This document shows, in pieces, positions 4,672-53,572 of a stretch of DNA of 64,000 nt (position 1 is its first letter; every line of letters begins with the position of its first letter). Source of the stretch: an uncultured Methanoregulaceae archaeon (GTDB lineage Archaea; Halobacteriota; Methanomicrobia; Methanomicrobiales; Methanospirillaceae); NCBI GenBank assembly GCA_963705255.1, contig OY970061.1, positions 224,001 to 288,000 of the forward strand, in the 5' to 3' direction. The position numbers and the translations under genes were made by a program. The notes below the pieces were generated by a model that saw only the letters and a list, made by a program, of their open reading frames with translations, made no database searches and was not told the DNA's origin.

Positions 4672-6109
4672 TTACCTCCGGTACCCGCCGGCTTTCTGCC
4701 AGCCGGGTTTTCTGAATTTCAGGAACACGAGGGGAGGTACTGCAAGCAGGAACGTCCCGAAGAGTACGGCTGCGACATAGGCGAGGCCGCTGGTCGCGAA
4801 GTAGGACGGGGGCATCAGCCCGACAATGAAGGCGAATACCGTGCCAAAAAGCCCGAGCCCCCCGACGACCCAGACTCCCGCCTTTCCGCCGGGGATCCTG
4901 AACGGCCGTGGTCTGTCCGGCTGGCTGTAGCGCAGCTTGATCACGGCGGCAAATACGAGGATGTAGACGATACACAGGAGCTCGACGGTCATTGCCGAGA
5001 GTATCCAGTACGCCTGGTTGACTGACGGGAGGAAGACGTAGAGGAGGGAGATGGCCGAACCGATGAGTGCCTGGATGACCAGCACTGCCACCGGGGCGCC
5101 GTACCGGTTGGTGCGGTCGAACATCGGCGGCATGTTGCCCTCTTCTGCGACAACCCCAAGCCCTTTGGCAGGACCGATGAGCCAGGCAGCAAGGGAGACG
5201 ACCCCGCCAAGGGTGATCAGGTCCTGCCATCGGCGCGACGAGCCCGGGCATGTGGGCGGCCGTGAAGAAGTACTGGATCGCCTGCATGACTCCCGACGCA
5301 AGGTTGAGCTGGTCGGCGGGGATGACGACCGCGATCGCGAGCGTGGCAAGGACCGTGCAAACGACAATGATAGCAGCGGACAGGGCCATGGCACGGGGGA
5401 AGTCCTTCTGGGGATCCCGGGTCTCCAGCGCGTGGAACCCTGCCATCTCCATGCCGGCAAAGAGGAGTATGATAGTGGCAAAGAACGGCAGGGTGGAAAC
5501 GTTGATGACCGGTATCAGGGCGCCCGGCGAAAAGGGCGGGAGGACGAGGGCTGCGCCGGAACCGAACCACCAGATCCCGAGCAGGATGATCAGGAGCGCG
5601 GGGATGATGCTTCCCAGGATGACGCCGATATTGGAAAATTTCGTGGACACGCCTTCCCCGAGGCAGGCGATTGCCGTCGTGCCCCAGAACGCGATCATCA
5701 TGACGCTGAACATGTACAACGAGCTGGCGGCAAGCGCCGGTGTCAGGGCAAATGCGAGGGTGGACGCGATGAAGGAGAGGACCGTGGGGAACCAGACCAG
5801 GTTGTTCGACCACTCGCAGAAGAGTGCGGTAAAACCGCCTTTCTCCCCGAACGCCTGCCTGACCCAGGCATAGACACCGCCGCCTTCCGGCCACCCGGTC
5901 GCCAGTTCCGCCCCGGCGAGGGATATGGGGATGAGGAAGAGGACGGCGCCGATGATATACCAGCCGATGCACGACCACCCGTAGATTGCCATGGACGGGA
6001 AATTCCTGATACTCAGCACTGCCGCCACGTTGATCATGGCCAGCGCAAAGAGGCCGAGCACTTTTTTCGATGGCAGGGCGGCTGCCCCGTCCGGACCGGT
6101 CCCGCTCAT
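4672..6109 (-). CDS. APC-family amino acid permease (GadC-like antiporter), frameshift near 5222
   Basis: AELATGWPEGGGVYAWV and FAGMEM motifs; ORFs 4664-6109 and 4672-5481 join into one ~478-aa permease; ATGA overlap with the decarboxylase. Confidence 0.85.
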
Positions 6110-8415
6110 TTCTTCTTCTCCCTGATGCAGTACATCATGTATTCTCCGTTGATATTCTCAATGCCGTGCGTATCGTGCCCGAACCCCGGGAAGCGGTTGT
6201 CGAAGTCCTGGAGGGATTTCAGGTACTGAAGCACCGGTTCATTCTGTTTCCCGGTCCGCTCCCCCGGTGCAAGGATGGGGATGCCGGGAGGATACGGCAC
6301 GATTCCCGTTGCCACGATGCGGTTGCCCGCTTTTGCTACCGGGACGTGTTCGACCTCGTTCCTCACGAGCCGGGTAAATGCTTCAGCATAGGTGACCGCG
6401 GGCTCGGGCAGGAGCGAGAATGCCTGCTGGAGCAGTTCGCACATGCGGTGCCCTTTTTTGAAGGCATGCATTTCGTCGACAAGCCCCTTGATGGTCATGC
6501 CGGCGTACCTCTCCGGGCAACCCCGGGTGAGATCCGGGAACACCTCTTCGAGCGGCACGTTCTCATCGTACAGCCGCTTGAACTCGAAGAGTTCGGTGAG
6601 GAGGGTGCCCCACTTTCCCTTGGTGATGCCCATCGAGAAGAGGAAGAGGATACTGTAATCACCGGACTTCTCGTTGATGATCCCCCGCGTGTCGAGAAAC
6701 CTGACCACGATGGCAGCCGGGATCCCCCACCCTGCCAGCGTCCCGTCGTCATTGACACCGGGCATAAGCACGGTGACCTTGATCGGGTCCAGCATGCAGT
6801 AGTTGTCCTCAAGGCCCTCAAACCCGTGCCATCTCTCACCCGGGTGGAGCACCCAGCAGGAGGGGTTGTCCCTGAGTGTCTCAAGCGGTAAAGCGGCAAA
6901 GGGGATCTTCTTCTTCGTCTTCGGGTCCCTGACGGTATCCGGCTGCCACATGGTGAACCACCAGTCGGTCCCGGTCTTTCCGGTCCCGAGTTCTTTCCCG
7001 ATACGTGCCATGGTGCGGCGGAAGCGGATGGCCTCCTCGATGGTCTCGGCGGTCAGCAGCCTGCCCGATGCCCCGTCCATCATCTTCGAGGAGACGTCAA
7101 GAGAGGCGATGATGGTGTAGAGCGGGGAGGTGGAGCTGTGCATCATGAACCCTTCATTGAACCGGCTGTGTTCTACCGGCACTCTCCCGTTCCTGACATG
7201 GATCATGGATGCCTGGGAGAGGGCCGCGAGCAGTTTGTGGGTGGACTGGGTCGCAAAAACGGTCGGGCCGCGGGCGTCCCGGGCACCGTCGCGCATGGCG
7301 AACCGGTTTGTATAGAGTGGGTTGAACCGGGCATAGGCATACCAGGCCTCGTCGAAGTGGATGCTGTCCACGCTCCTGCCGAGGAGTGCCTCCACCTCTT
7401 TTGCATGGTAGCACAGCCCGTCATACGTCGAGTTGGTGATGATGGCATGGACCGGTTTTTTGTCCGGGGCGGTCTTCGCAAGCGGGCAGGCCGCGATCTT
7501 TTTCCGGATCGCTTCCGGGGTCATCTCCGATTTCGGGATAGGGCCGATGATCCCGTAGCGGTTCCGGGTCGGGATCAGGTAGACCGCTACGGAATGGGTC
7601 ATGGTCAGGGCATGCTCCGCTGACTTGTGGCAGTTGCGGTCCACCATGACGATGTCGTCTTTTGTCACCCTGCCGAAGAAGACGATCTTGTTTGCGGTCG
7701 ACGTCCCGTTGGTAACAAAATAGGTCATGTCGGAACCGAACACCTTCGCCGCATACTTTTCTGCCTCGCCGACCGGTCCAGAGTGGTCGAGGAGCGACCC
7801 GAGCTCCCCGACCGATATGGAGAGGTCGGAGCGGAAGAGCTGTTCCCCGAAGAATGCATGGAAGAGCCGTCCCGGGGCCGACTTCCTGAAAGCCGTCCCC
7901 CCGGCATGGCCGGGCGTGTGCCACGAGTATTCGAAATCCTTCGAGAACCTGACCAGTTCGCCGAAGAACGGGGGGAGGAGGCGCTCCTGGTAGCGTTTTG
8001 CAGCGGCGGTGATACGCCCCGCGATGAATTCAGGGGTATCCTCCATGACGTAGATGTATTCACTGATCTCGCGGATCATGTCGACCGTGAGGGATACCGG
8101 GGTCTCGCTGGTGGCCTCGGCCATCAGGAAGATCGGGATATCCTCGTTGCGGTCGCGTATCTCGTGGATCAGGTCCTGGGTCTCTTTCTGCTTCTTGGGG
8201 GTGCCCCCGCCGAGGTTCCAGTTGATGAGGATACAGTTGACTGCAGGGAGGTTGGAGTAGGCGGCCCGGGCGTCGGCCGGTGAAGCCACGTCTGCGACCC
8301 TGATGCCATAGGCCTCGATCCCCTGCACGATCCGTTTGATAGCCCTCCCGTGCGGGGTATCCGTATGGATGGTGTCATCGATGATGGCGACCTGCAGGTT
8401 TTCATCCGGGTTCAT
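6106..8415 (-). CDS. Orn/Lys/Arg decarboxylase (PLP-dependent, wing domain)
   Basis: WHTPGHAGG, DRNCHKS, HFDEAW, PLP lysine in QSTHKLL, PYPPGIP. Confidence 0.95.
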   Translation of the reverse strand: MNPDENLQVAIIDDTIHTDTPHGRAIKRIVQGIEAYGIRVADVASPADARAAYSNLPAVNCILINWNLGGGTPKKQKETQDLIHEIRDRNEDIPIFLMAEATSETPVSLTVDMIREISEYIYVMEDTPEFIAGRITAAAKRYQERLLPPFFGELVRFSKDFEYSWHTPGHAGGTAFRKSAPGRLFHAFFGEQLFRSDLSISVGELGSLLDHSGPVGEAEKYAAKVFGSDMTYFVTNGTSTANKIVFFGRVTKDDIVMVDRNCHKSAEHALTMTHSVAVYLIPTRNRYGIIGPIPKSEMTPEAIRKKIAACPLAKTAPDKKPVHAIITNSTYDGLCYHAKEVEALLGRSVDSIHFDEAWYAYARFNPLYTNRFAMRDGARDARGPTVFATQSTHKLLAALSQASMIHVRNGRVPVEHSRFNEGFMMHSSTSPLYTIIASLDVSSKMMDGASGRLLTAETIEEAIRFRRTMARIGKELGTGKTGTDWWFTMWQPDTVRDPKTKKKIPFAALPLETLRDNPSCWVLHPGERWHGFEGLEDNYCMLDPIKVTVLMPGVNDDGTLAGWGIPAAIVVRFLDTRGIINEKSGDYSILFLFSMGITKGKWGTLLTELFEFKRLYDENVPLEEVFPDLTRGCPERYAGMTIKGLVDEMHAFKKGHRMCELLQQAFSLLPEPAVTYAEAFTRLVRNEVEHVPVAKAGNRIVATGIVPYPPGIPILAPGERTGKQNEPVLQYLKSLQDFDNRFPGFGHDTHGIENINGEYMMYCIREKKK

Positions 8416-9254: not shown

Positions 9255-9372
9255 GCCGGTCATCTGATTTTACTTTTTTTCCGGGGAATCCCGGCGCGGA
9301 GCGGAGACCCGGCGCACCCTGCACACGACCTGCCGGGTCGGCCACGGGTTTATGGTATAATGCTATAAAAAA

Positions 9373-9734
9373 GACTTTGTTGGAACCCTATTTTTCTGAT
9401 CATTTGCTTATACTCTGCTGAGGTTAGGAGGGTAACCCCCTCTCTCAGGTCGCAGAACTCTGACGAGTTCTTCTCCAGTCTGCTCTTCCCTTCGGGAACA
9501 GCAGTCTCCCCGGAGGGGGAGGCAACCCAAGGGGAGCATCCCTTGAATCTCTGAGAGGTCTTCAGACCTCGAAGAGGAGAAGATTTACAAAGTAAATCTT
9601 CGACCCCATCGTTACTCATGGTAAAAGCAGACAATTCGAAGAACGCTGATGCGTTCTTCTCTTGTCTCCATGACTCCGTCATGTCGACACCCCCAAGAGC
9701 GACTGCATAGTTCTCTGAGGATTTCAACAAAGCC
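9373..9734. mobile_element. MITE copy A (IS903-like TIRs) with three nested hairpin cassettes
   Basis: Ends GACTTTGTTGGAACCCT / AGGATTTCAACAAAGCC; flanks ATAAAAAA / ATGAAAAA (7/8); colinear with 29924-30379 and the reverse complement of 48972-49224. Confidence 0.85.
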
Positions 9735-9764
9735 ATGAAAAATTAAAATTACATCGGTTTAGCG

Positions 9765-9989
9765 TCATCCACGCCCGAACCCGAAAAATGCAATGCCGAA
9801 TATCTTTTCGATGGCATAGAGGACACCAAAGAAGATGGCGGCATACAGCACGAAGTTGATGATAAATCCCGAAGCACCGGCGATGCCTGCTGCCGCCACG
9901 ATAGCGCTCGAAAGCGCATCGGCGATGATGATGGCACAGAGGATACCGGCAAAAAAGGTCACCCATTTTTTTACTGCTGACATGTCCAT
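9765..9989 (-). CDS. Small 2-TM membrane protein
   Basis: 74-aa ORF with two hydrophobic helices; TTTAATA upstream on the minus strand. Confidence 0.7.
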   Translation of the reverse strand: MDMSAVKKWVTFFAGILCAIIIADALSSAIVAAAGIAGASGFIINFVLYAAIFFGVLYAIEKIFGIAFFGFGRG

Positions 9990-10191
9990 ACCGGTACATA
10001 TGCTGCCGGACTATTAAATTTCAGGTACCCTGCAGGATACTATTGCGGTTCCCGGTTTTTTCGGATCCTCTGCCATCGTGCATGGACAGGGTGCCAATCC
10101 TGCACATGCCATGTCTTCGTAACGCTGTGGATCTCTGGTCTCCCGGATTTTTTATGACGGATTTATTAAATAAATCGCCATACACTTTGGT

Positions 10192-20779: not shown

Positions 20780-21156
20780 CCAACCTTATTTCACGATTTT
20801 TCCACAAAAATGGGGAGAGGCAGACATGAATCGATAGAGCTCACTCCGGAACCTTGAAAATCGTTCAGTTATGAGGGCTCCCCGCCTCAGGGCCTCTCCG
20901 AGGCACGGCGGGGCAAGGAGGTTGAACCGCCGCGGGGGCGCCCCGTCGGGGGCGGCGGCGTTCATCGCAACAATAAAAAGAGGGCTTATCTCCTGTGATA
21001 TCTGAATAACGCGACCCTCATAGGAAACGCCAGAATAATTTCGCGTACACCGGATTAAGATTCCCGACGGATTTTCACCGGTAAATCCTGACCGCTCGTA
21101 CTGGCATGGCAAAATCAGATTGATGCAGGTTGCGAACACCTCACCGTTCCTGCCCG

Positions 21157-22107
21157 TTACACCGCTTGGGAGACCCCGACAAGGGAACGGATCCACTTCT
21201 GGGTTTCTGCCGGGGTTCCGGCAGTGTTCACGAGGTAGACAGTCGTCCGGTCCAGGAGGTCCGCGACGTACTTGTTGCGGATGAGCGTTTTTGACGGGTT
21301 CCTGACGAGGAGGTGGGGGTTGAAATAATTATTTTCAGCGAAAAATTTCAGCCCGGTCTCGGGGTCGAGTGTCTGGACCACGTTCTCGTCCGACGGGGCC
21401 CTCCTGAGGACGATGATGATCTTCAGGGTTGTCATGGGAAGGATCCTCCCTTTCCCTATCACCCAGCGGACATCGGCTACCGCACGGCCATCGGCATCAT
21501 AGTCCCCTTTCTCGACAAGTCCCCCGAACCCTTTCCAGATGGTCTCGAGATCCTGCTGGATGTAAAAATTTTTTTCCGAGCCGTACACGAGGACATCGGG
21601 CCTGTATACCCGCGCGAAGAACCAGTCATCCGAAACGATGCGCGTGCTGGGGTCCCTGAGGAGGCCGTAGGTCTGCGTGGTCTTCCCTGCACCGGGACCG
21701 CCGACGATGCAGATGCCTTTTCCGTCGACATCGATGCAGGCGCCGTGGATCGAATAGATGTTGTGTTCGTCCTCGAGGATGTCCCCGGCAAGGCTGAGGG
21801 CGAGGGATTTGATCCAGCCGTAATACTTGAAATTCAGGAGGAATGCGGTCTTGGAGGCCGGGTCGTACAGCACGCTGTCCGGCGGGTAAGACGGGTCGCT
21901 GAAGATGAAGAGCCTGCCATGGGACCGGACATTTTGCGACATCGAATAAAAGTTATCCTCCCAGGTGTCCTTCAGGATGTGGTCATCGCAGAGGAGCTTG
22001 ATGCAGCACCCGTAAATCTCCGATTTGATCTCGTACCTGACCTGCGGGAGATACCGCTCCATCAGGCGTCCTTTCTCTTCGATGGATATGGCAGAAACCG
22101 TGTACAT
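21157..22107 (-). CDS. HPr kinase/PEP carboxykinase-like P-loop protein
   Basis: HGACI...GGPGAGKTT...VSDD motif set. Confidence 0.75.
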   Translation of the reverse strand: MYTVSAISIEEKGRLMERYLPQVRYEIKSEIYGCCIKLLCDDHILKDTWEDNFYSMSQNVRSHGRLFIFSDPSYPPDSVLYDPASKTAFLLNFKYYGWIKSLALSLAGDILEDEHNIYSIHGACIDVDGKGICIVGGPGAGKTTQTYGLLRDPSTRIVSDDWFFARVYRPDVLVYGSEKNFYIQQDLETIWKGFGGLVEKGDYDADGRAVADVRWVIGKGRILPMTTLKIIIVLRRAPSDENVVQTLDPETGLKFFAENNYFNPHLLVRNPSKTLIRNKYVADLLDRTTVYLVNTAGTPAETQKWIRSLVGVSQAV

Positions 22108-29923: not shown

Positions 29924-30379
29924 GGCTTTGTCGAAACCCTATTTTTCTAATCATTTGCCTTGTACTCTGCGGTTAGGAGAGTGACCCCCTCTCTCAAGTC
30001 GAAGAACCTGTCGGTTCTTCTCCAGCCCGCTCTTCCCAGCGGGAACAGCGGTCTCCCCAGTAGGGGAAGGCAACGCAAGGGGACCATCCCCTTGAATCTC
30101 TGAGAGGTCTTCAGACCTCGAAGAGGAGAAGATTTACAAAGTAAATCTTCGACCCCGTTTTTTCGGGTTTTCCATCAACCTTCTGAGGAACTATCCTAAT
30201 ATGGGGGATGCCCTAGCGGCGGGGACTGCCGAAGGCAGTGGAGAAGAATTCGCCAGAATTCTTCGACTGCGGAGGGTCGAAGAACGCTGATGCGTTCTTC
30301 TCCAGCCTCACCTCACGTTTCGTGAGGTTCGTCACCCCCAAGAGCGACTGCATGTTTTTCTGAGGATTTCAACAGAGCC
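29924..30379. mobile_element. MITE copy B (IS903-like TIRs) with four nested hairpin cassettes
   Basis: Ends GGCTTTGTCGAAACCCT / AGGATTTCAACAGAGCC; flanks GAAAATTC / AAAAATCC (6/8). Confidence 0.85.
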
Positions 30380-30398
30380 AAAAATCCCGTTCTCCGGT

Positions 30399-48971: not shown

Positions 48972-49224
48972 GGCTCTGTTGAAATCCTCAGAGAAACATG
49001 CAGTCGCTCTTGGGGGCTCCAGCACTTCATGCTTCCGCCCCCGCCGCTCGGGCATCCCCCATATAGGGATAGTTCCTCAGAAGGTTGATGAAAACCCCGA
49101 AAAACGGGGGTCAAGGGGATGCTCCCCTTGGGATGCCTCCCCCGCTGGGGGAGAGAGGGGGTTACCCTCATAACCGCAGCAGTGTATAAGCAAATGATCA
49201 GAAAAATAGGATTTCAACAAAGCC
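48972..49224. mobile_element. MITE copy C (253 bp, cassette-free core, opposite orientation to A and B)
   Basis: 16/17 TIR GGCTCTGTTGAAATCCT / AGGATTTCAACAAAGCC; flanks GAGAATAA / AAGAATAA (7/8); abuts the mfnF stop codon. Confidence 0.9.
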
Positions 49225-53299: not shown

Positions 53300-53572
53300 T
53301 GCTCTGGAAAAATCGTTGTCTTTCATTAAGGACGCTCTTGGGGGCTACGTCTTCAGGGTCCAGATGGACCCTTCAGACTTTCGCCCCCGCCACTCGGGCA
53401 TCCCCAGTATCGCGATAGTTTCTCAGAAGGTTGACGAAAATATCTTGAAACGGGGGTCAAGGGGGGGTGCACCCCTTGGGCTGCCTCCCCATCTGGGGGA
53501 GAGAGGGGGCCACACTCATAATGTTGGCGGCTATAAGCGATTTAATCATTAAAAGAGGATCTCCTTCGAAGC
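53300..53572. mobile_element. MITE copy D, old and degenerate, same orientation as C
   Basis: Blocks CGCTCTTGGGGGCT, CTCGGGCATCCCC, CTCAGAAGGTTGA, AAACGGGGGTCAAGGGG, CTGGGGGAGAGAGGGGG colinear with copy C; TIRs eroded. Confidence 0.75.

Follow-up and report, generated by a model that had tools for sequence, protein, structure and literature searches.

To our knowledge, nearly all repetitive extragenic palindromic (REP)-like elements and enzymes acting on a folded single strand that have been described are bacterial. The attC sites of integrons are recognised as folded single strands. For REP elements, the RAYT protein (TnpA-REP), a Y1 HUH enzyme, is reported to bind and cleave single-stranded REP DNA (PMC3733652), and a survey of 172 archaeal genomes gives only the IS200-type Y1 subclass and no RAYT-type enzyme (PMC6006769). 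The present analysis deals with a family of two-hairpin cassettes, three of which are located in a mosaic element at positions 9373 to 9734 of a 64,000-nt stretch of DNA (the window) from an uncultured Methanoregulaceae archaeon. The genome of this archaeon (G000) consists of a single contig of 2,600,650 bp with a G + C content of 54.6%. The cassettes are short interspersed palindromic repeats, and on one of the two strands, the same throughout, their unpaired positions are biased towards purines. The best reading is a family of mobile mini-hairpins of Methanoregula and Methanoculleus that resembles REP elements and the bacterial interspersed mosaic elements (BIME). On balance it is probable that the cassettes are small non-autonomous mobile DNA units, which are recognised as one folded strand and moved strand-specifically.

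Cassette structure, strand signature and distribution

On the strand termed the GA strand, a whole cassette of about 50–60 nt starts with hairpin 2, which is followed by hairpin 1. Hairpin 2 is variable in sequence and consists of an outer stem, an internal loop of tandem G.A (or a single G.G), an inner stem and a loop. Hairpin 1 reads GA-GAAGA, variable stem, loop, complementary stem half and TCTTC-GA, so that a GAAGA/TCTTC foot is capped by tandem G.A and the loop is mostly closed by C-G. The variable part between the foot halves comprises a few to about 20 nt, and the stems co-vary freely. Due to this variable spacing of the foot halves, the constant object exists only in the folded strand, DNA or RNA alike, and not in duplex DNA.

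In total, 258 GAAGA...TCTTC hairpins were detected in G000, of which 166 have asymmetric flanks (76 GA/GA and 90 TC/TC). Using the foot flanks for orientation, 169 strict cassettes could be identified in the 2.6 Mb. The inner stem of hairpin 1 is perfect in 150 of these 169, and these 150 represent 86 different combinations of stem and loop (types). Loops end in A in 73 of the 86 types and start with T in eight; the types are related copies, and binomial p-values therefore overstate their independence. The closing pair is C-G in 73 types. The loops were assigned to the classes GNA (23 types), GNNA (14), HNCA (22) and other (27), and the reverse complements of the three named classes do not occur among the 86 types. 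Counted by copies (n = 150), 71 loops are GNA or GNNA, 45 HNCA (mostly ATCA) and 34 other; the commonest single loop is ATCA with 39 copies, and TTCA is present in four.

The same strand is marked in hairpin 2. In 84 of the 169 cassettes, parsing yielded a 2x2 internal loop, with 56 cases of GA/GA and none of TC/TC. A wider parser covered 89 cassettes with 67 hairpin 2 types; the internal loop contains purines only in 54 of these types, pyrimidines only in one and both in 12. Furthermore, 19 hairpin 1 stems contain one mismatch, namely G.T (9), A.C (1), G.A (5) or another (4). The ratio of nine G.T to one A.C is a third, independent strand mark; neutral transitions would yield both equally.

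Other genomes show the loop signature as well, one of them from another family of the order. Within a GA-flanked foot, five cassette-rich genomes contain C-GNA-G 47, 44, 6, 1 and 22 times (120 in total), compared to 1, 0, 2, 1 and 0 occurrences of C-TNC-G (4 in total), none of which is a centred triloop. In the related genome G019, about 72 of the 100 matches listed (of 179) have loops of the GA-strand classes and two have loops of the reverse classes, as judged by eye. An earlier note, made from the letters of the window, had described GNA/GNNA loops and GA/GA internal loops as a property of one strand; this bias persists genome-wide and is repeated in other genomes, and the strand marked by the loops is also the one marked by the internal loops, the flanks of the foot and the G.T wobbles. 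The note's caveat that some loops do not fit was also appropriate, as GNA and GNNA account for only 71 of the 150 copies.

Of 108 genomes of the genus, 29 contain the GNA-cassette pattern, 15 of these with at least ten copies, and 79 lack it; the reversed pattern, used as a control across the 108 genomes, gave two hits in total. Cassette copy numbers are 173 in G000, 179 in G019 and 168 in G089. Among 41 relatives scanned, G038, a member of another family of the order, contains 34 foot matches, mostly with C-GAA-G and C-GGA-G loops. A scan of named genomes yielded at least 120 loci. Among the matches listed, 17 have true hairpin complementarity, and all of these belong to Methanoregula, Methanoculleus or other Methanomicrobiales records; the other listed loci are non-hairpin chance matches in unrelated organisms. 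For Methanoculleus marisnigri, the supplement of a published study contains two unannotated satellite consensus sequences with units of 44–51 nt (PMC6749651). These units are paired GA-flanked GNA hairpins with the feet GCACC/GGTGC and GAAAACGC/GCGTTTTC; the word "hairpin" is absent from the main text of that study (PMC6749651). No title or abstract describing the cassette family was found in the literature on Methanoregula and Methanoculleus repeats, archaeal REP and RAYT/REPIN, where these two satellite sequences are the only trace of it.

Scaffold, insertion sites and turnover

The cassettes of the window are hosted by a scaffold of about 250 nt with inverted ends (GGCTCTGTTGAAA...), for which target duplications of 5–10 bp were seen in other copies. 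Copies bounded by terminal inverted repeats (TIR) range from 159 to 578 nt in G000, and a search for TIR pairs revealed no autonomous longer parent with scaffold ends in this genome. The scaffold is a classical miniature inverted-repeat transposable element (MITE) with TIR and target site duplications (TSD), for which filled and empty sites were found. The features of the window are listed in Table 1. The hairpins between 9447 and 9689 resolve into three cassettes of about 50–60 nt where the earlier note had placed them, and as single-stranded DNA each of them folds much better than shuffled sequences (z from −3.2 to −7.2). The solo hairpin at 53349–53378 also has the structure proposed before, with its GA internal loops on the minus strand.

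Table 1. Hairpin cassettes, scaffold copies and associated hairpins in the window.
Feature	Position	Strand	Description
Mosaic element	9373..9734	+	MITE-like scaffold with inverted ends GACTTTGTTGGAACCC ... GGATTTCAACAAAGCC and three hairpin cassettes; repeat coverage and copies elsewhere in the genome
Cassette 1	9447..9507	-	Scaffold slot 1
Cassette 1 hairpin 2	9480-9504	-	CTGCT-G-TTCCC-GAA-GGGAA-G-AGCAG; G.G mismatch, C-GAA-G loop
Cassette 1 hairpin 1	9450-9475	-	GA-GAAGAACTC-GTCA-GAGTTCTGC-GA; GTCA loop; degenerate foot GCAGAAC instead of GAAGAAC
Scaffold's own hairpins	9508..9546	+	TCCCC-GGAG-GGGGA and CAAGGG-GAGCAT-CCCTTG; outside any cassette; kept in cassette-less scaffold copies (anchors A3-A4)
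Cassette 2	9547..9603	+	Scaffold slot 2
Cassette 2 hairpin 2	9549-9576	+	CTCT-GA-GAGGTC-TTCA-GACCTC-GA-AGAG; tandem GA/GA internal loop, TTCA loop
Cassette 2 hairpin 1	9577-9603	+	GA-GAAGATTTAC-AAA-GTAAATCTTC-GA
Cassette 3	9636..9688	-	Right-hand scaffold slot
Cassette 3 hairpin 2	9664-9688	-	GTC-GA-CATGAC-GGA-GTCATG-GA-GAC; tandem GA/GA internal loop, C-GGA-G loop
Cassette 3 hairpin 1	9636-9661	-	GA-GAAGAACGC-ATCA-GCGTTCTTC-GA; ATCA loop
Second mosaic copy of the scaffold	29926..30380	+	Four cassettes; GA-strand loops GACA, AAA, GCCA, ATCA
Short scaffold copy	48972..49222	-	All cassette slots empty; reference for the empty state
Scaffold copy D	53334..53521	-	Solo hairpin 53349-53378 replaces the usual right-hand scaffold hairpin
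Solo hairpin of copy D	53349-53378	-	GTCT-GA-AGGGTCC-ATCT-GGACCCT-GA-AGAC

For the scaffold, 39 copies were compared anchor by anchor, and 20 scaffold copies contain all six sequence anchors. Among these fully anchored copies, slot 1 is empty (9–11 nt) in 12 and filled in eight, slot 2 is filled in four, always in the orientation of cassette 2, and the right-hand slot is filled in nine. The orientation of the cassettes is constant per slot (TC, GA, and a GA + TC pair). The cassettes are units separate from the scaffold, carried by the MITE as cargo or inserted into it secondarily.

At the right end of the mosaic element, the stop codon of an open reading frame (ORF) of 91 aa (9724–9999, minus strand) falls within the right inverted end of the MITE, so that the C-terminus of this small gene may have been reshaped by the insertion. 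Shorter alternative ORFs are located at the same place (9749–9952 and 9765–9989).

Throughout G000 the cassettes form 108 dispersed clusters, of which 69 are solo and 39 contain several cassettes; 23 of the latter are of mixed orientation. Head-to-tail arrays with units of 51–56 nt are present in G000 and G019, and cassettes are also nested inside the stems of other cassettes. Between paralogous cassettes, the similarity stops at, or just past, TCTTCGA. Tandem arrays of the related genome are found at G019:C1:200400-201500 (L039) and at two further loci (L040, L041). One of these arrays has a 110-nt unit composed of a GA- and a TC-oriented cassette head to head with a common TCGA, and another is a 55-nt head-to-tail array that reaches the contig end. 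The densest hot spot of G000 is located at G000:C1:2466500-2472500 (L197), with nine strict cassettes in 2 kb. The small ORFs of this hot spot have no Pfam matches and form a duplicated cluster, which is also found at 2058180–2060041 and 201320–201967 and includes a 167-aa protein in three copies (P0001, P0002).

The turnover of the cassettes was analyzed using the close relative G089, which was found by a genus-wide search, is 97% identical over window positions 6106–8415 and holds 168 cassettes. For this, 863 kb of G089 were taken, and 694 kb could be aligned to G000. In or within 1.5 kb of the syntenic blocks there are 46 G000 cassettes, 18 of which share the orthologous site with G089; for four only one flank was found, and 24 are without orthologous context. 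The two genomes differ by 88 indels of at least 25 nt, 41 of which are repeat-associated by a strict test. Of 44–70 nt in length are 21 indels, at least eight of them clean two-hairpin cassettes by eye, four being specific for G000 and four for G089. At six of these eight clean indels the flanking direct repeat is 0–1 nt long, and at the others 2 and 5 nt, so that no regular target site duplication is formed. Their 5′ flanks have no tetranucleotide in common.

Several cassette insertions lie within or directly beside another hairpin of the family. At position 1902483 of G000 a cassette is inserted in the foot of a host hairpin 1, at 2043378 and 2043442 two insertions on opposite strands flank one scaffold hairpin, and at C2:36241 of G089 the insertion is located two bases past the TCTTCGA end of the preceding cassette. 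G000 has an empty site where G089 carries a 550-nt mosaic, with a TGAAA(A) repeat. The site of the mosaic element at 9373–9734 is occupied in G089 (L200, C6 about 20930–21210) by a MITE of the same family with the same flanks, in inverted orientation and as a short form of 221 nt, and this counterpart carries different cassettes. This suggests either an inversion between the inverted ends or a repeated use of one target. A search for the empty site in metagenomes with a 31-nt flank resulted in no matches.

Candidate enzymes, folded strand and alternative explanations

If the cassettes are mobile units, a protein would recognise the folded GA strand by the foot, the G.A pairs and the 3′ loop A, and would then excise or copy the cassette and insert it strand-specifically, in analogy to known systems. 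The mover would be neither a Y1 HUH transposase nor a shared reverse transcriptase. No hits to the Y1 HUH transposase domain PF01797 (Y1_Tnp) were obtained in G000, G019, G002, G022, G038 and G089. The domain was detected in 12 of the 41 relatives, all with few or no cassettes, and in six of 14 control genomes. The lead of the earlier note to HUH transposases is not supported, since no Y1 enzyme was found in the six cassette-rich genomes and its carriers among the relatives are cassette-poor. Of the five cassette-rich genomes searched for a reverse transcriptase, only G000 gave a hit. There, the domain PF00078 (E = 2.4e-10) is located at G000:C1:316720-317175 (L074) in an open frame of 533 aa, with cassettes about 1–2 kb away at 318180 and 318936.

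TnpB was also considered as a partner and rejected: its domain is found in 23 of the 41 relatives, including the cassette-free complete genome G020, and does not track the cassettes. No cassette-type GAAGA...TCTTC hairpin was found in about 3.2 kb around the TnpB-like ORF of G000 (about 250 aa; one copy examined). Frames of the TnpB type (PF07282) with about 250–300 aa are located at G000:C1:2543446-2543637 (L072 1321-2073, minus strand) and at 2035489–2035680, and frames of similar size are present in G019, G002, G020, G003 and G015; G000 has no TnpA. These short frames look like conserved truncated or domesticated relatives of TnpB. The multi-copy protein families of G000, examined as a source of the enzyme, turned out to be ordinary paralogues (glycosyltransferases, aldo-keto reductases and sensor kinases). 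Nuclease or recombinase domains were not found in the cassette-flanked genes of G000 and G038, and a 484-aa frame of G038 was discarded as a candidate because it looks like a spurious antisense frame.

The recognised nucleic acid is probably single-stranded DNA, by analogy to the IS200/IS605 and REP elements. The cassette acts as inserted DNA with sharp edges, its marks travel regardless of local transcription, both orientations occur in one scaffold, and a reverse transcriptase (one of five) is not common to the cassette-rich genomes. A selection study reportedly lists d(cGNNAg) among the stable DNA tetraloops. The C-GNA-G and C-GNNA-G loops are described as far more stable in DNA than in RNA, with melting at 76.5°C for d(GCGAAGC) and d(GCGAAAGC) and at 39°C for r(GCGAAAGC) (PMC13037366), and the stability of GNA mini-hairpins is reported to depend on the closing pair (PMC3201870). 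Of the proposal in the earlier note that a folded DNA strand is under selection, the constraint on one strand held, while DNA was not singled out: nearest-neighbour models favour the GA strand in 146/153 with DNA parameters and in 131/153 with RNA parameters. Folding energies of this kind cannot separate DNA from RNA, because GAA and TTC triloops get the same energy and no bonus is given to GNA.

Several points weigh against mobile units that are recognised as single-stranded DNA. The GA strand is favoured by the RNA parameters too, and RNA is just as characteristically rich in tandem G.A and G.U pairs. The 39 ATCA and four TTCA loops among the 150 copies fall outside the hyperstable GNA/GNNA class of DNA loops, and the A-first loop GCAAAAGC is reported in a mini-hairpin review to show no melting transition (PMC13037366). 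The indels come from a comparison of two genomes only, G000 and G089, and some of them could be precise losses. A rule by which insertion always takes place 3′ of GA and ends exactly at TCTTCGA had been suggested by the scaffold slots and the paralogue comparisons and was rejected; it fits about two of the eight clean indels, the 3′ ends lying 0–6 nt past TCGA and the 5′ flanks being variable. Furthermore, identical foot and hairpin 2 sequences occur in genomes whose genes are only 70–80% identical, which could be due to a host-level function rather than to transfer. Finally, no enzyme was found, and the mechanism is therefore based on analogy only.

A more specific form of the mobile reading, to be regarded as tentative, is an undescribed archaeal system for the transposition or integration of single-stranded DNA that works without a Y1 HUH enzyme and without a reverse transcriptase. 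Its enzyme would read the foot capped by sheared G.A pairs and the purine-closed loop, and the two-hairpin unit would be pasted without target duplication, preferably in or beside other hairpins. Such pasting into or beside hairpins would account both for mosaics that nest in themselves and for arrays in head-to-tail order.

A constraint at the level of RNA is unlikely. In this case, the cassettes would be transcribed by read-through or from both strands, their GA-strand hairpins would bind a protein or protect 3′ ends, and they would spread as ordinary repeats. The strand preference with RNA parameters (131/153) is in line with this, and both sheared G.A pairs in tandem and an excess of G.T(U), here nine to one, are classic RNA features. 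The positions relative to genes were determined with an own crude ORF caller (2,337 genes, 75% of the genome). According to these calls, 161 of the 169 cassettes are intergenic and convergent gaps hold 55 of the 161 compared to about 24% of the intergenic length, i.e., they are somewhat enriched, and both findings would suit transcribed hairpins. However, between co-directional genes the GA strand is sense in 41 and antisense in 39 cases, and for solo cassettes only in 16 and 20 cases, respectively (p = 0.62). The earlier note had named two outcomes that would count against its reading, a lack of strand bias in the larger set and an orientation tracking host transcription together with stable small RNAs; the bias persists, and the orientation does not follow transcription. 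The cassette strand has no regional pattern and no link to the local gene-strand bias (p = 0.16); the cumulative GC skew of G000 is essentially flat over the 2.6 Mb, so that neither a replication origin nor a terminus can be read from the composition.

Also against an RNA is that both orientations, fixed per slot, are present in one scaffold, so that UC-type hairpins would also be part of any single transcript. The tetraloops are mostly (A/G/T)TCA and GNCA and not GNRA or UNCG. A route by copying back from RNA is unlikely as well, because of the reverse transcriptase being restricted to one of five cassette-rich genomes. The search of the 64-kb window against Rfam 15 at gathering thresholds resulted in no matches, and a permissive search of 9300–9800 revealed only snoR9 and an Xist fragment, both at chance level. 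The weak match to snoR9, a C/D-box RNA, covers 9305–9413 on the plus strand (20.4 bits compared to a gathering threshold of 90, E = 0.015), reaches into the left MITE end and most likely arose by chance. With strand marks that agree, a gene-independent orientation and mixed orientation in 23 of the 39 multi-cassette clusters, the view of the earlier note that one folded strand is constrained, and not an RNA terminator, is upheld.

Slightly less credible still are DNA structures serving the host, i.e., cruciform or hairpin sites for a chromatin, replication or recombination protein, which would be kept by selection and moved by recombination. This would agree with the lack of a transposase candidate in the searches made, with the foot and hairpin 2 sequences that remain identical at 70–80% gene identity and with the like copy numbers of G000, G019 and G089 (173, 179 and 168). 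REPs of E. coli are reported to bind host proteins (PMC2817692). On the other hand, 79 of the 108 genomes of the genus are without a GNA-type cassette and the structure is therefore dispensable, genomes of about 97% identity are unlike at over half of the sites, cassettes nest in one another's stems, and placement and orientation are random relative to genes.

A strand asymmetry merely inherited from one founder with purine loops and GA flanks, whose stems were kept perfect by homogenisation of palindromes at the DNA level, is very improbable: although the copies are related, so that type counts overstate their independence, and the foot GA-GAAGA/TCTTC-GA is nearly invariant, the at least 86 stem/loop types of various lengths with more than 30 loop sequences include none of the reverse-complement classes, the unrelated stems of hairpin 2 obey the same purine-only rule (54 of 67 types), the G.T to A.C ratio of nine to one differs from the about equal numbers of neutral decay, and the M. 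marisnigri satellites keep GA flanks and GNA loops on different feet (PMC6749651).

In a methanogen lineage, the cassettes thus reach about 170 copies in each genome; their strand signature is unusually clean, and they turn over fast between near-identical genomes. The 15 cassette-rich and 79 GNA-cassette-free genomes of the genus are a direct handle for finding a new hairpin-recognising protein, and the cassettes represent a natural test of whether cells exploit the extreme stability of d(C-GNA-G) and tandem G.A in vivo. In addition, the mosaics break assemblies, as one contig of G089 ends in such a mosaic, and they create strain-level intergenic variation in methanogens that are important in peat and digesters.

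Comparison with known systems

The scaffold and the cassettes differ in kind. Unlike classical TIR/TSD MITEs, the cassettes are not bounded as whole units by terminal inverted repeats and are usually without target duplication. With integron attC sites they share a conserved structure with variable sequence and length, and unpaired bases that mark one strand. In contrast to attC, they measure 50–60 nt, consist of two hairpins only, contain no ORF and have a different conserved motif, and they form 108 dispersed clusters instead of being arrayed by an integrase and attI (no integrase search was made).

The mini-hairpin motifs d(C-GNA-G) and d(C-GNNA-G) correspond to 71 of the 150 hairpin 1 loops, and the C-G closing pair that they need is present in 73 of the 86 types. 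These are, however, structural motifs and not an element family, and 45 HNCA and 34 other loops of the 150 fall outside of them.

Like IS200/IS605 elements and their miniatures (palindrome-associated transposable elements, PATEs), the cassettes have hairpins near both ends and strand-specific features, and six of the eight clean indels have 0–1 nt of flanking repeat. Unlike for IS200/IS605, TnpA (Y1) was not found, no fixed tetra- or pentanucleotide target emerged from these indels, the sequence of hairpin 2 varies between cassettes, and the TnpB locus examined in G000 is without a cassette-type hairpin.

With REP, BIME and REPIN elements the cassettes share their nature as short imperfect palindromes, the extragenic position, at least 100 copies per genome and mosaics of mixed orientation. 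Further similarities to REP are the strand-specific conserved tag at the hairpin foot and the patchy distribution among relatives. In contrast to REP, the host is archaeal, every unit combines two unlike hairpins in a fixed pair, and tandem G.A pairs together with GNA/NYCA loops belong to the signature. The GTAG or CGTC tag of REP was not seen in the aligned cassette copies, which end in GA-GAAGA and TCTTC-GA, and, unlike for REP/RAYT, a Y1 gene was not found in the six cassette-rich genomes. The nearest precedent for this is the CGTC superfamily of REP, which is likewise reported to have no dedicated transposase (PMC3733652). Without the REP tag and without a RAYT, the cassettes are nevertheless closest in behaviour to the bacterial REP, BIME and REPIN elements.

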